Positions 11,506 through 15,581 of a stretch of DNA of 23,418 nt are shown one piece after another. The stretch is taken from assembly GCA_027623355.1 (NCBI GenBank), contig JAQBWB010000013.1, forward strand, positions 1-23,418, written 5' to 3'. A program made the translations under genes and the position numbers. This DNA comes from Nanobdellota archaeon (GTDB lineage Archaea > Nanobdellota > Nanobdellia > Woesearchaeales > JACPBV01). The notes under the pieces were generated by a model. It saw only the letters and a list, made by a program, of their open reading frames with translations, made no database searches and was not told the origin of the DNA. Each line of letters opens with the position of its first letter. Position 1 is the stretch's first letter.

Positions 11506-14148
11506 ATGAGATTACTTCACAAGAAACTCACCTCATTGACAAAACACATAATCTTTCTAATAATCCTGATTGTCTTCGCAACCGCCTCACTAGCAATCTC
11601 AGATATATTCGTAAGCCTTGAAGAGTTTACACAAGATCATACCTACGGGAGTATCTCAATCTCTGACAGAACAGCAATAATGACGGGTGCATCCATGCAG
11701 GGTTGGACCGGTCCTTCTTTGACAAAAACGTTACCTGTAAGCCTTCCTGATTTTACTGTTTCTGCATCAGTTACTATGGAATCAGGTAAGACAAAGAGAG
11801 GAAGTAATAAACGAGGATCGATTGCAATAATGGATTCTAGAGGAGGAGTTATGTCCATTATGGTGGGAGAAGATGGCAATAATCGATGGAAGAATTCAGT
11901 TTGTAGCACATCCTGCTCAAGAGATGTAGGAGTACGCAAGGATGGGGATACTGTTTTCTTTCTAATAACTAAAAAGGGAAGTAGGTTAAAAATTATTGTC
12001 GATGAAACAGTATATCGGGACATTGAATCTCCCCTCATCGATCTCAGCAAAGTAGTGTTAAAGCAATCAGGCAACGAATACCCTCCCCAATTCACAGTAA
12101 CCTTTGATAATGTGAGAATTTCAGGATCCTGCGTTGATGATGACTTTAATCCAAAGAATGATCTCAAAGGAAGAGATCCCACTACAAAAGGGACAGTGAG
12201 CGGAATGGATGAATTTGGAAACATCATCTGGGCACAAGCAGATTATTGCACCTATGCAGATAAGGATGCATTTCAAGGTATCACCTTGACACGAGAAGAA
12301 GGTATGACTCAAGTTCAGCTCGGAGAAAGACTTACAGAAACTCAAATCAACAATCTACATAAAAAAGGGATGTACTCGGAGTCACCTGAAAGTGTAAAGG
12401 AACTAATAGGAGCAAAAATAGCAGCAGATGTTCCTGAAAATCATCGCTCCATCGGTACCTACGTCATGGAAGGAAGGTGCCGCGATAAAGATAACGATGG
12501 AGAATATGAAACGGTTGACATTCGACCGATCAAATGTCCTCCTGGAACAGGAGGTTGTAAGGAAGGTAAATGTAGTAAAGAATCATGGTTCAAAGTAATT
12601 TCCTCAGCAGCCGTAAACGAGATAGTCGATGAAGTGACTAATCTTCCCGAAAACTTCGGAAATGGCGTTGCAGTCACACTATTTACCAATGATATTCTAA
12701 GATGGTACTACAAATTAGACGAAACTCAAAATGCAATTCATCAGTCAAAATCAGGGATGTATTATGCAGGGTATGCCTGGGGAAGAGTCGCAAGTGCAAT
12801 TATCGCACTGCATGTAGCAGCAGCAGCCATACCTAATATTGGAGCCCATTTAATTACTGCCTATACGGTTGCAGGAAGTGCAGGAAACCCCATATTAATA
12901 CAGCTAGGAATCATAGCAGAAATTGCAGATGTAGCTGCGACCGGATACTTCGGCTATGCATTAGGTGGACAAATTTACGAAGGATACTCCACAAATCAAT
13001 GGAAAGTCGAAGAAATGATCGATACATCAGTAGAAATCGTTGGAACTCTAGGTGCAGGAGACCTTATTGAAACAGGAGTAGGTAAAGGTCTAGGTAAAGT
13101 TCTAGGTGCAGGAGACCTTCCTGAAACAACAATCCAGCGTGTTCCAAAACATAAACCATTAATGGTTGACCCCCCAAAAAAGGGTACACCTTCAGCTGGT
13201 CCTTATATCCAGCTACAAGCGCCATTACGGCCCAAAGGGGAACTCCTAGGGCCAGAACAGTTTCCTGGACTAACGAAAGAATATGCCGCATATCTCAGAT
13301 ATTTAAAAAAAGAACACCCAGATATCCTATCGGAGAATTGGAGAACATTTGGAAGGAGTCCAGAAGGAATCGTCAATGCTGACGAATGGTACCTCATCAA
13401 CGCATGGAAAGCAAAAGCCGAATTCGGAAATAACCTAGATCAATTTATGGTTACTGATCCCCTTACCTTGGACATGTACACAAAAAAACTAACGAAAAGG
13501 CACAAGATCGCAGTGGGTATAGAGACGGGACATGGATACTCTGCAGGCAACTACCACTCACTTGATGAGGCTATCGTTCATCCAGGAAAAACAAGAAACC
13601 AAATCCCTGAACAAAATGTAGTCTACACTAGTTCAAGTCCTGAGACATTTTCAGGAGCAACCGAATGGCTCAAATCACAGGGCTTTCCTCCCAGGGGAGA
13701 TTTTGTCTTAATCAAAGGTATGCCTGAATTATTAGAATCCAAAGGAACCCCCTACAATTACCAACGTGCTGGATTTGATGGAGTAATTCCATTTAATGCT
13801 CCATCTGTTAAAGGAGATAGCGGAAAGCATTATTATCCAGTAAATCACCAAGTGGGTTTATACCTGGAGCTTGCACATAAACAATTTGTCGAAGTAATTG
13901 AATTGATGAAAAGAAATGCTCCCCAGGATAAAATTCTAATTGCAGTAGCAGATTATTACCATACCGTTATCAATGGCCATTTGTTTAGCAGAGTCAATAA
14001 CTCTCTGTTAATGGGGGAGATAAACATAATCCTAAAGAGGATAGGACTCAAGGAAGTAACACATGGTAAACTTGATCTTTATGCAATAGGGATAGATTAC
14101 CCAGAATTCAGAACATACTTCGCTCAGTTCATTCAACAAGCACAATGA
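11506..14148 (+). CDS. large surface/membrane protein: signal anchor, ConA/LamG-like domain, Cys-rich region, Gly/Ala-rich hydrophobic block, C-terminal Fic-like domain with degenerate motif
   Basis: 880-aa ORF. N-terminal TM at about aa 14-36. The beta-rich domain at aa 40-206 ends in FTVTFDNVRISG (LamG/DUF1080-like). Cys-rich region at aa 207-360 (CPPGTGGCKEGKC). Hydrophobic block at aa 416-495. C-terminal region ...KHYYPVNHQV...ILIAVADYYHTVINGHLFSRVNNSLLMGEINIILKRIGL follows the Fic-core layout. Confidence 0.8.
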   Translation: MRLLHKKLTSLTKHIIFLIILIVFATASLAISDIFVSLEEFTQDHTYGSISISDRTAIMTGASMQGWTGPSLTKTLPVSLPDFTVSASVTMESGKTKRGSNKRGSIAIMDSRGGVMSIMVGEDGNNRWKNSVCSTSCSRDVGVRKDGDTVFFLITKKGSRLKIIVDETVYRDIESPLIDLSKVVLKQSGNEYPPQFTVTFDNVRISGSCVDDDFNPKNDLKGRDPTTKGTVSGMDEFGNIIWAQADYCTYADKDAFQGITLTREEGMTQVQLGERLTETQINNLHKKGMYSESPESVKELIGAKIAADVPENHRSIGTYVMEGRCRDKDNDGEYETVDIRPIKCPPGTGGCKEGKCSKESWFKVISSAAVNEIVDEVTNLPENFGNGVAVTLFTNDILRWYYKLDETQNAIHQSKSGMYYAGYAWGRVASAIIALHVAAAAIPNIGAHLITAYTVAGSAGNPILIQLGIIAEIADVAATGYFGYALGGQIYEGYSTNQWKVEEMIDTSVEIVGTLGAGDLIETGVGKGLGKVLGAGDLPETTIQRVPKHKPLMVDPPKKGTPSAGPYIQLQAPLRPKGELLGPEQFPGLTKEYAAYLRYLKKEHPDILSENWRTFGRSPEGIVNADEWYLINAWKAKAEFGNNLDQFMVTDPLTLDMYTKKLTKRHKIAVGIETGHGYSAGNYHSLDEAIVHPGKTRNQIPEQNVVYTSSSPETFSGATEWLKSQGFPPRGDFVLIKGMPELLESKGTPYNYQRAGFDGVIPFNAPSVKGDSGKHYYPVNHQVGLYLELAHKQFVEVIELMKRNAPQDKILIAVADYYHTVINGHLFSRVNNSLLMGEINIILKRIGLKEVTHGKLDLYAIGIDYPEFRTYFAQFIQQAQ

Positions 14149-15581
14149 AAAATGCAATAATTACTACAGTTACAGTAATCCTACTATCAACAGTAGCTCT
14201 CTCTGAATCAGGAATTTCAAATTTCATATTCAATGGAGAGACAGTAATAGGGATGGACTATAATGATGGCAGAAGTACAAGATGGGAGTATGACCCTAAT
14301 GGCCGCCTGCTTTACGTCTTGCCAACAATCGGAGCGAACACATTCAAAATTACTTACTACTACTTTGAAACCGGACCAAACAAAGATCGCATAGAATCAA
14401 TTACTCTGCAGGCCGCTGATTCTCCAACGATTATACAAAAAGTACGCTATAAATATGATAATGCCGGAAGAGCTAACATTATCGAAGAAACGACTTCAGG
14501 AAACAGCAAAAAAACACTACAGATTGGTTACGTACCTGGAGGTGTTCACGAAGGAAAAGTCTCCAAATTAACACATACTCAGACCGGACCAAACAATGAG
14601 CCATTAAAAATAGAGGAAAACTTTAACCACCTTGGACTAGAAGAATTCCACGTTCGAAAACAACTTTCTATAAACAATGTCAATCTAGGAAGTACAGATA
14701 TTCGCGTTACACCAGGTAATAAAGTAATTGTAACATCGCCTGAATACAAAAAAACCACTGAGTGGAATAACGGAGAACTACAAATACAGTATGATTCAAA
14801 AAAAAGTGGAAAACTAACAGGTAATTGTGCATATACTCTTGCCAACGGGAACGGACAATGTTCCGTGAGTTCCCTAGATGAAAATGGGGTCAGACAAGAT
14901 GACACCACAGAATTTAAAGGTCGTTCTATGGTATCAGAAAAAGTGAAACTCTCCATTAATAACGAACAGCTCTACTCAAGAGAGATCGATTATAAAGGAA
15001 ATCAAGTCACAAAGATGTCTATCAAAAAAGGATCAAATGACGAAGTGAACCAAGATTACAGGTACGATGAAAACGGACGACTAACAGAAACAAGAGAGAT
15101 GGAAATTATCCATAAAAAAGACTCAGTTACAGTTGCTGCTAAAGCGGGAGAAGATTCCGTAGATCTCTTCACTGTAAATTATGATGATAATCACCAAATA
15201 ACTAACATAAAGATAGCAGAAAACACACTTACCGCTCAACTACAAGCAAGAGAAAATAATGGGGAATTTAATGTAGATAACTACGCCATTAGCCTAGATG
15301 CTCCGGACTATGAACTCGATGAAACCGGGAATCCCACATCTATCAGATATGGAAAAGAAACTAAAGAGGAATTCTACTTTGATATGAACGATAAATTGGT
15401 ATACTATACGGATCGAGATAACACTCCCCATTACCTCTTAGAGGGAATTGACCTAAATCCAGATAATCCTCCCAGTTCGAGTAAATACGCACTTGATTTC
15501 GATTTTGATGATACTCTCCTCATTAAGTGGATAAATAATATAGCTCCAATAAGCCTGGTTTTTGAGTCTGTGAAAAGTTAG
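14145..15581 (+). CDS. secreted YD-repeat (RHS-family repeat) protein, no recognisable RHS core or toxin tip
   Basis: 478-aa ORF with an N-terminal signal-like segment (ITTVTVILLSTVALS). YD repeats: RWEYDPNGRLLYV, VRYKYDNAGRANII, DYRYDENGRLTETRE and FTVNYDDNHQITN. ATGA overlap with the 880-aa gene. Confidence 0.8.
   Translation: MKNAIITTVTVILLSTVALSESGISNFIFNGETVIGMDYNDGRSTRWEYDPNGRLLYVLPTIGANTFKITYYYFETGPNKDRIESITLQAADSPTIIQKVRYKYDNAGRANIIEETTSGNSKKTLQIGYVPGGVHEGKVSKLTHTQTGPNNEPLKIEENFNHLGLEEFHVRKQLSINNVNLGSTDIRVTPGNKVIVTSPEYKKTTEWNNGELQIQYDSKKSGKLTGNCAYTLANGNGQCSVSSLDENGVRQDDTTEFKGRSMVSEKVKLSINNEQLYSREIDYKGNQVTKMSIKKGSNDEVNQDYRYDENGRLTETREMEIIHKKDSVTVAAKAGEDSVDLFTVNYDDNHQITNIKIAENTLTAQLQARENNGEFNVDNYAISLDAPDYELDETGNPTSIRYGKETKEEFYFDMNDKLVYYTDRDNTPHYLLEGIDLNPDNPPSSSKYALDFDFDDTLLIKWINNIAPISLVFESVKS

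Follow-up and report, generated by a model that had tools for sequence, protein, structure and literature searches.

The question raised by this locus is whether two overlapping genes of a DPANN archaeon encode a molecule that acts on another cell. Life as a DPANN archaeon requires being physically attached to a host cell, and to our knowledge almost no DPANN molecules acting on the host are known. The genes lie on a contig of a Nanobdellota archaeon (JAQBWB010000013.1), and the whole 23,418-nt stretch that was analysed is referred to below as the window. The open reading frame (ORF) A encodes a protein of 880 aa and ORF B one of 478 aa, with the start of B and the stop of A sharing four nucleotides, ATGA (read from the sequence as 'gcacaATGAaaaatg'). 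Both ORFs and their overlap (Table 1) are present as reported in an initial annotation made from the DNA letters, which had also called protein A 'giant', a word hardly suitable for 880 aa. Our preferred reading, held tentatively and with a confidence that stays slightly below even, is that A is an exported modular host-interaction effector, consisting of a binding module, a conditional membrane block, a linker and a divergent Fido tip, and that B is its trans-encoded YD accessory protein.

The C-terminal domain of protein A and its family

The argument starts from the C-terminal part of A, where the initial annotation had placed a domain of ~320 aa; the domain proved to be real, its size being about 280 aa (aa ~600-880) instead. 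An exhaustive HMMER search with A retrieved 261 matches at E ≤ 1e-3, and more than 140 of the best 150 of them cover either aa ~605-880 or the core at aa 770-880. The match ends 0-30 residues from the C-terminus of the subject in nearly all of the listed homologues. Their lengths vary from 90 aa to 3.9 thousand residues (kaa), i.e., from proteins of ~100-450 aa up to multidomain ones of 1.2-3.9 kaa; the large carriers contain LysM, FHA, RamC_N kinase-like, EDR1 peptidase-like, HEAT or EF-hand parts, and no RHS or haemagglutinin repeats were found in them. Among the matches listed, the domain stands at the C-terminus in more than 100 unrelated architectures, which agrees with its earlier description as 'warhead-like' in that it is portable and terminal, and a domain located so strictly at the C-terminus of many unrelated carriers behaves as effector or toxin domains do. 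Most of the multi-kaa carriers end in the domain, and in a few (P0029, P0045, P0105) it is internal. Two copies of the core occur in a few homologues (P0018, P0026, P0066), and one homologue with EF-hands gave a weak match to XopAW, a family of type III secretion system (T3SS) effectors.

Alignments of 16 and of 95 sequences revealed the family signature ADYYHTaIngH-x-F-x-R-[VI]-N-N-S-x-x-M-x-E-[VI]-N ... H-G-x-L-D ... F-R-x-x-F, the first element of which, H-x-F-x-[RK]-[VIA]-N-N-S, is kept in most homologues; the multi-kaa homologues among P0029-P0150 read R-P-Y-G-Q-I-N-N-S there, with no His. Three residues (N831, N840 and D857 in the numbering of A) are invariant across the 95 divergent sequences, and five more (S833, M836, L843, H853, F872) are nearly so, while the closer 16-sequence set (alignment A1) additionally has S833, H666, G671, R697, D816 and H819 invariant. 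No model for this domain was found in Pfam and NCBIfam when A together with 95 + 9 + 21 homologues was run. Judged by these alignments, we are dealing with a large family without annotation, which possesses its own signature and is distributed across many uncultured organisms.

Predicted fold of the C-terminal domain and its relation to Fic

The AlphaFold2 (AF2) model of aa 600-880, built with the 16-sequence alignment, had a predicted local distance difference test score (pLDDT) of 85.8 and a predicted template modelling score of 0.87. When this model was compared with the PDB using Foldseek, all of the top 50 matches were Fido-fold proteins. The translocated effectors AvrB (TM-score 0.52/0.50) and AnkX (about 0.5) scored highest by TM and both matched with a probability of 1.0, FICD had the lowest E-value (2.8e-3), and the others included Bartonella Bep proteins, BT_2513 and Fic proteins of Coxiella and Mycobacterium; a fold search of BFVD added nothing significant. 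The HLFSRVN stretch forms in the model a loop between helices 807-824 and 832-845, and the modelled geometry of this signature loop is that of the Fic motif between helices alpha4 and alpha5. The structure prediction therefore supports a Fic (Fido) fold for the domain.

Membership in the canonical Fic family is, on the contrary, not supported by sequence comparison. The canonical motif HxFx(D/E)GNGRxxR is replaced in A by H825-L-F-S-R-V-N-N-S-L-L-M, in which only the His, the Phe and an Asn agree. Pfam Fic (PF02661) had no match in A at E ≤ 1, and its weak matches in 4 of the 95 homologues (best 4.9e-4) were under the 24-bit cut-off. Searches of PDB sequences with the domain profiles found no Fic chain, and an hhalign comparison of alignment A1 with E. 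coli Fic was not significant (probability 0.4%), the sole aligned stretch placing ADYYHT..GHLF on AHYYCE..LHPF. The 'Fic-core-like layout' proposed initially was thus a good call as regards the fold predicted by AF2 and Foldseek; the domain does not have the canonical motif and does not reach the Pfam Fic threshold. The closest functional analogy is AvrB, a Fido protein that lacks the Fic motif and is an active UDP-rhamnose-dependent glycosyltransferase (rhamnosyltransferase; PMC10866546).

Export and gene neighbourhoods of the homologues

Hydrophobic segments were analysed in 144 homologues of the C-terminal domain: 86 have none, 32 have an N-terminal one only, and 26 have internal ones. The N-termini of about 30 homologues (P0008 and P0010 included) were read, and most of them resemble cleavable signal peptides, e.g., MRPLLLILFFVGAVCSSALA/AP. 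The 32 proteins with a signal-type segment at the N-terminus only suggest that the domain is frequently exported whole, and a predicted nucleotide-dependent enzyme outside the cytoplasm would be expected to act inside another cell.

At the bacterial loci (L006, L007, L009 and the P0008 contig) the homologues are encoded by solitary genes, with neither a co-directional downstream gene nor a YD gene nor a secretion-system neighbour. An immunity gene was likewise found at none of the loci examined, i.e., these four, the A locus and L002, the second archaeal locus described below.

Modular organisation of protein A

The order of parts in A, as delimited by its homologues and composition, is a Sec-type signal, an N-terminal domain of ~185 aa, a Cys-containing spacer, a Gly/Ala block, a Pro/Lys linker and the C-terminal domain of ~280 aa (Table 1). 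Whole A had no match in Pfam, NCBIfam, PADLOC and PHROGs. Nothing meaningful was found among PDB sequences with A, B, the profiles A1, A3 and A6 or the C-terminus of the homologue P0003. A word-indexed homology search returned only the query for A and for B, and only P0020 for the domain profile; two metagenome scans (alignments A4 and A7) and two viral scans found nothing. A viral or defence-system origin of the module was rejected, since PADLOC, PHROGs and both viral scans were empty.

Table 1. Positions of the features of the A/B gene pair in the window
Feature	Position	Strand	Residues	Basis and remarks
Candidate archaeal TATA box TTTATAAA	11417..11424	+		82 nt upstream of the ATG of ORF A; read from the sequence
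ORF A	11506..14148	+	880 aa	Modular, predicted exported protein; ORF list and translation
Putative signal peptide or signal anchor of A	11506..11598	+	aa 1-31	K/R-rich n-region, hydrophobic core 14-30, ...ASLA/IS
Lineage-restricted N-terminal domain of A	11590..12147	+	aa 29-214	Five homologues
Spacer of A	12148..12750	+	aa 215-415	5 of the 8 Cys (248, 325, 344, 351, 356)
Gly/Ala-rich semi-hydrophobic block of A	12751..12975	+	aa 416-490	About 3 helix-length segments
Acidic, then Pro/Lys-rich linker of A	12976..13302	+	aa 491-599	Translation
Predicted divergent Fic-fold (Fido-like) C-terminal domain of A	13303..14145	+	aa 600-880	Homologues, AF2, Foldseek
Family signature HLFSRVNNS	13978..14004	+	aa 825-833	Sits where Fic proteins have HPFx(D/E)GNGR
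ORF B	14145..15581	+	478 aa	Predicted secreted stand-alone YD-repeat protein; ORF list, Pfam, NCBIfam
Putative signal peptide of B	14145..14210	+	aa 1-22	MKNAIITTVTVILLSTVALS/ES; hydropathy, read from the sequence
YD-repeat beta-hairpin region of B	14259..15404	+	aa 39-420	Regex count; no DPxGL RHS core

The public ENA call of A starts at Met64 (817 aa; positions 11506-11695 of the window), so that the signal segment is dropped. The long ORF with its ATG at 11506 is favoured, since the alignment with P0003 starts at residue 7 of A and spans the hydrophobic segment. The N-terminus of A is K/R-rich and then reads HIIFLIILIVFATASLAIS; its signal segment (aa 14-32) has a Kyte-Doolittle value of 2.53 and an additive Hessa ΔG of -1.6. 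The real transmembrane helices of the genome (those of a DUF2079 protein and of a 545-aa membrane protein) range in ΔG from -5.3 to +4.9, and the 'signal anchor' of the initial annotation is thus as hydrophobic as genuine transmembrane helices.

The following ~185-aa domain, which ends with FTVTFDNVRISG, possesses an invariant W, GP, two Cys and PPxF[TS]VTF. It has five homologues (P0003, P0006, P0007, P0019 and P0021; E from 6e-47 to 9e-17), one of which, P0007, is labelled Nanoarchaeota and has the domain set among MopE-type metal-binding and TSP3 repeats, with no warhead. Presumably, it is an extracellular binding module. A conserved domain is indeed present where a 'ConA/LamG-like' one was initially described; in the searches for this putative LamG fold, neither Laminin_G nor any other Pfam family matched at E ≤ 1 and the profile of the domain (A3) had no match among PDB sequences. 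Of the 8 Cys of A, 6 fall within the region called 'Cys-rich' (aa 207-415), and 'rich' is an overstatement for A; the spacer of P0003 is truly Cys-rich. The spacer of A has neither homologues nor family matches.

The Gly/Ala-rich hydrophobic block of ~80 aa, reported initially, is present, as 33% of aa 401-480 are Gly or Ala. Its best 19-mers have ΔG values of +4.4, +7.2 and +7.5, the soluble parts of A being at +9.5 or above, so the block is clearly more hydrophobic than those parts, yet at or beyond the weakest end of the genuine transmembrane helices. Given these marginal values and an acidic C-terminal flank, a secreted segment that inserts into membranes under certain conditions is a better fit than an anchor of the stop-transfer type. 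Comparable hydrophobic blocks precede the C-terminal domains of P0003, P0008 and P0013. The pre-toxin domain PT-TG (PF14449) was considered as the identity of the block and rejected: Pfam gave no match, and the literature portrays PT-TG as a loop region without order (PMC13483458).

The linker of A is conserved solely with P0004, a metagenomic fragment of 188 aa (44% identity); the contigs of P0004 and P0005 are too short for gene context, and a look-up of P0007 as an exact gene product gave no record. An in-frame direct repeat (D6) lies in the linker at 13047-13074 and 13101-13128, encoding LGAGDLIET and LGAGDLPET with 93% DNA identity.

Protein B and a second locus of the same type

Protein B scored above the cut-offs of two repeat models, Pfam RHS_repeat (PF05593; 9e-11, 42.3 bits versus 22) and TIGR01643 (21.3 bits versus 15.8). 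A regex count revealed 3 strict and about 10 relaxed YD-type motifs over aa 39-420, with no further domain after the repeats. The core motif DP.G[LIVM] occurs in neither A nor B, and the NCBIfam RHS-core model (TIGR03696) had no match; the initial description of B as a stand-alone, secreted-type YD protein lacking the RHS core is therefore correct. The AF2 model of B, made from the single sequence, consists entirely of beta-hairpins, its pLDDT of 40 allowing it to be read as a secondary-structure trend only. No detectable relative of B was found in an index of 5.8 billion proteins. A closed shell of the Rhs or TcB-TcC type needs roughly 700 aa or more. Such a cocoon is very unlikely for B, since its length of 478 aa (189 aa at the second locus) speaks against it and the core motif is absent.

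One related archaeal locus was recovered, that of P0003 (L002; the same gene lies on the GTDB metagenome-assembled genome contig L005, the one genome locus found with alignment A4). P0003 (1095 aa) shares with aa 7-213 of A, i.e., with the signal and the N-terminal domain, 45% identity (E 2e-50), and continues with its Cys-rich spacer, a semi-hydrophobic block and an unrelated C-terminal domain of ~260 aa. Four nucleotides past its stop begins a gene for a 189-aa protein with a signal peptide and an RHS_repeat match of 46.3 bits, which is followed by the methionyl-tRNA synthetase gene (MetRS). Consequently, the arrangement of an A-type gene followed by a small secreted YD gene recurs, and the shared N-terminus with unrelated C-termini indicates that the C-terminal domain is exchangeable. 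Since a YD gene follows both A and P0003, it is the constant portion (N-terminal or hydrophobic) that the YD partner accompanies, and not the variable tip. The two checks proposed in the initial annotation, co-occurrence of the genes and C-terminal swapping, are thus both positive in this one related locus. B was rejected as an immunity protein, because it has a signal peptide and because the YD gene tracks the constant N-terminal part; our best guess is an accessory binder, adaptor or holder.

Two side observations concern P0003. Its C-terminal domain had no database match; the order Cys...His...Asp within it hints at an enzyme resembling papain or a transglutaminase. Its contig L005 (CAZBLF010000017.1) is binned as 'uncultured Methanosarcinales archaeon'; the shared N-terminal domain was otherwise met only on Nanoarchaeota-labelled or unlabelled small contigs, so the label of the bin may be wrong.

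Proposed mechanism and alternative explanations

On our preferred reading, the genes of A and B make up one operon in a Nanoarchaeota (DPANN) cell. Both proteins start with hydrophobic segments of the signal type and would accordingly be exported, most probably via Sec. Outside the cell, A would expose its lineage-specific binding domain and the Cys-containing spacer, and the Gly/Ala helical block would associate with a membrane or insert into it, helping the domain to reach or cross the target membrane. The flexible Pro/Lys linker would carry the enzyme-like Fido-fold domain, in which the Fic phosphate-binding loop HPFxDGNGR is replaced by HxFxR[VI]NNS. By analogy with Fic (donor ATP), Doc, AnkX (CDP-choline) and AvrB (UDP-rhamnose), this domain may take a donor that contains a nucleotide and with it modify a protein of another cell, most plausibly of the host archaeon to which the cell is attached. 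B, translationally coupled to A, would be a secreted YD beta-sheet, an accessory adaptor, binder or holder that works on A or on the surface of the target. The data themselves cover the structure of the genes, their export signals, the domain families, the predicted Fic fold, the C-terminal swapping and the recurring pair of an A-type and a YD gene; we infer the enzymatic activity, the target, the translocation and the role of B.

Several of the data weigh against the proposed effector. The Foldseek E-values are weak (2.8e-3 at best), the TM-scores are ~0.5 with a large root-mean-square deviation, and all sequence links to Fic are below threshold. The domain lacks the Mg-binding acid of the Fic motif along with its Gly-Asn-Gly anion hole and its two Arg, and H825 is not invariant, since some homologues have L or M there and the giant proteins have R-P-Y; given these losses, another chemistry or a pseudoenzyme is conceivable. 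FHA domains are fused to the C-terminal domain in several bacterial homologues, which points to a cytoplasmic signalling role in those lineages. The segment at aa 424-442 (ΔG +4.4, Kyte-Doolittle 1.6-1.75) overlaps the weakest real transmembrane helices of the genome, so that A might be a single-pass protein with a cytoplasmic C-terminus. Finally, conservation of the gene pair is known from two loci only, and B and the 189-aa YD protein have no similarity beyond the type of repeat.

The alternative that survives best, which we consider rather unlikely but serious, takes up just this topology. Nanohaloarchaeota possess SPEARE proteins, which combine extracellular laminin-G or adhesion, protease and BC-toxin-like (YD shell) parts with a transmembrane helix close to the C-terminus and, in the cytoplasm, a restriction domain of type III; they are proposed mediators of host interaction and were reported to be absent from Nanoarchaeota (PMC6642349). 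By the same logic, the block of A (one odd-numbered spanning helix, around aa 424-444) would anchor a resident membrane protein, with the N-terminal domain and the Cys spacer facing outward and the Fic-fold domain in the cell's own cytoplasm, where it would be a signalling or self-modifying enzyme responding to host contact; B would be an extracellular YD co-receptor or adhesin in trans. The nearness in layout to the SPEARE proteins (PMC6642349), the ΔG of aa 424-442 inside the range of the weakest true transmembrane helices, the K/R-rich linker further downstream of the block, the bacterial FHA fusions, the absence of an immunity gene beside the domain at any locus examined and the order signal peptide, hydrophobic block, domain in P0008, P0010 and P0013 are all consistent with such a protein. 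However, the block is far less hydrophobic than the signal segment of A or typical transmembrane helices of this genome, and its strongly acidic C-terminal flank disfavours an inside location. Besides, in ~30 homologues the domain follows a lone N-terminal signal-type segment and is apparently often exported whole, and A has no homology to SPEARE-type domains, with no match to ResIII, a peptidase or Laminin_G.

A bolder form of the effector reading goes further: A would be a Sec-exported, self-inserting effector representing a new Fido branch (HxFxR[VI]NNS) with a chemistry other than AMPylation, a branch that is widespread in bacteria yet has escaped recognition there as a C-terminal effector domain, and would have the small YD sheet as an obligatory partner in trans, which might, e.g., hold the semi-hydrophobic or unfolded cargo or dock it on the S-layer of the host. 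We regard this version as unlikely; if true, it would represent a 'split' form of the Rhs/Tc principle and, among DPANN symbionts, the first module for effector delivery to be defined.

Distinctly improbable is a structural surface or adhesin pair of an ectosymbiont, with the Fic-fold domain as a pseudoenzyme serving as a binding module. It would account for the absent canonical Fic catalytic residues and the variable His position, for two exported proteins encoded next to a glycan-biosynthesis island and for the N-terminal domain of P0007, which stands among MopE-type and TSP3 repeats with no warhead. Yet the invariance of N831, N840 and D857 and the near-invariance of S833 and H853 across the 95 sequences, joined by D816, H819, H666 and R697 in the closer set, look like those of an active site, and the strictly C-terminal position on unrelated carriers is that of effectors or toxins.

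The last explanation, a classical polymorphic toxin for killing kin or competitors with B or the 120-aa ORF at 15605-15967 as immunity gene, is very improbable. In its favour, A and P0003 share their N-terminus and differ in the C-terminal domain, the hallmark of polymorphic toxins, and earlier work has suggested loci of this kind in archaea (PMC6393860). But B has a signal peptide and YD repeats and its kind of gene tracks the constant part; the 120-aa ORF runs on the other strand and is missing from L002, where the next gene is that of MetRS; the bacterial homologues have no co-directional downstream gene; and the window holds no orphan toxin/immunity cassettes. With the immunity gene absent, the 'contact-dependent toxin' of the initial annotation, understood as a classical kin-competition toxin, is not the best fit, and an effector exported together with its YD partner remains our preferred, though tentative, explanation.

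Genomic setting of the gene pair

The public record of protein B reads 'hypothetical protein O2779_01775 [Nanoarchaeota archaeon]', the source being a metagenome-assembled genome, and an independent ENA assembly (L001) is identical across positions 11350-23418 of the window. The genes near A and B include SRP54, NurA and those of the NadB/NadC type, plus a kinase gene downstream; the archaeal context claimed initially is confirmed by the record of B and by the adjoining SRP54 and NurA genes. In guanine-plus-cytosine content, A (0.41) and B (0.37) are in line with the contig (0.39), which indicates native genes with no recent import, and recent horizontal acquisition was rejected on these grounds. 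With the candidate TATA box located 82 nt before the ATG, the leaderless transcription assumed in the initial annotation is not evident.

Upstream of A extends a block of ~11 kb with sugar-nucleotide, glycosyltransferase and methyltransferase genes, and the gene pair lies, as was initially noticed, at the edge of this glycan island, directly after the second copy (11236-11402) of a 167-nt repeat. The two copies of this ~167-nt element (the other at 81-247) are 98% identical and bracket the ~11-kb glycan/methyltransferase block. The element has sharp ends with a 13-bp terminal inverted repeat, GTGCATAGCAT...ATGCTATGCAC, and a folding energy of -65.6 kcal/mol (z = -4.9 versus shuffles), and Rfam and tRNA searches gave no match; it could be an element resembling a miniature inverted-repeat transposable element or a structured RNA. 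Assembly L001 breaks within its second copy. A tandem 21-nt duplication (ATTTTCGAAGATTAAAACTGC / ATTTGCTAAGATTAAAACTGC) occupies the intergenic positions 7804-7845, upstream of an epimerase gene at 7943.

Between B and SRP54 lies, convergent to B (15605-15967, minus strand), the ORF of 120 aa with a TTG start mentioned above; it is a 117-aa gene in the ENA assembly and had no family match in Pfam, PADLOC and PHROGs.

Comparison with known systems

The C-terminal domain of A resembles members of the Fido superfamily, such as AvrB of P. syringae and AnkX of Legionella, in its predicted fold and in the conserved loop between two helices, and it shares with AvrB the absence of the canonical motif along with the retention of invariant polar residues. 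It differs from the superfamily in having HxFxR[VI]NNS instead of HxFx(D/E)GNGRxxR, a variable His and no match to Pfam Fic or AvrB at threshold. Moreover, A is archaeal and presumably depends on Sec for its export, whereas AvrB and AnkX depend on the T3SS or the type IV secretion system.

The YD (RHS) repeats of Rhs proteins, Tc-toxin BC components and teneurins occur above the Pfam cut-off in B and in its counterpart at L002 as well. In B, however, no toxin is fused to the repeats, and the candidate warhead is on the separate polypeptide encoded upstream.

Polymorphic toxin systems were reportedly treated by Zhang et al. in 2012. Like such toxins, A is a predicted exported multidomain protein with a conserved N-terminus and an exchangeable C-terminus; unlike them, it has a secreted YD gene instead of an immunity gene beside it and contains no recognised trafficking or pre-toxin domain. 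Archaeal examples of these systems have been discussed (PMC6393860).

To the SPEARE proteins A is similar in layout only, as a DPANN protein with predicted export, extracellular parts presumably of the adhesion type, YD material, a hydrophobic segment near the C-terminal third and a terminal enzyme-like domain. There is no sequence relationship between them, A having 880 aa versus 3-8.5 kaa, a YD part in a separate gene and a predicted Fic fold in place of the restriction endonuclease.

Taken together, Fido-fold effectors, YD repeats, modular exported toxins and proposed archaeal polymorphic toxins are all of known kinds, and what is new here is the unannotated Fido-like family, its presence in a surface protein of Nanoarchaeota and its pairing, with no immunity gene, with small stand-alone YD proteins (two loci). 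The module thereby offers a concrete candidate for a DPANN molecule acting on the host: a compact, probably exported protein with a predicted Fido-fold tip and a YD partner. The function of the C-terminal domain, once known, would widen the catalytic repertoire of the Fic/Doc/AvrB proteins, as the finding of the rhamnosyltransferase activity of AvrB did.

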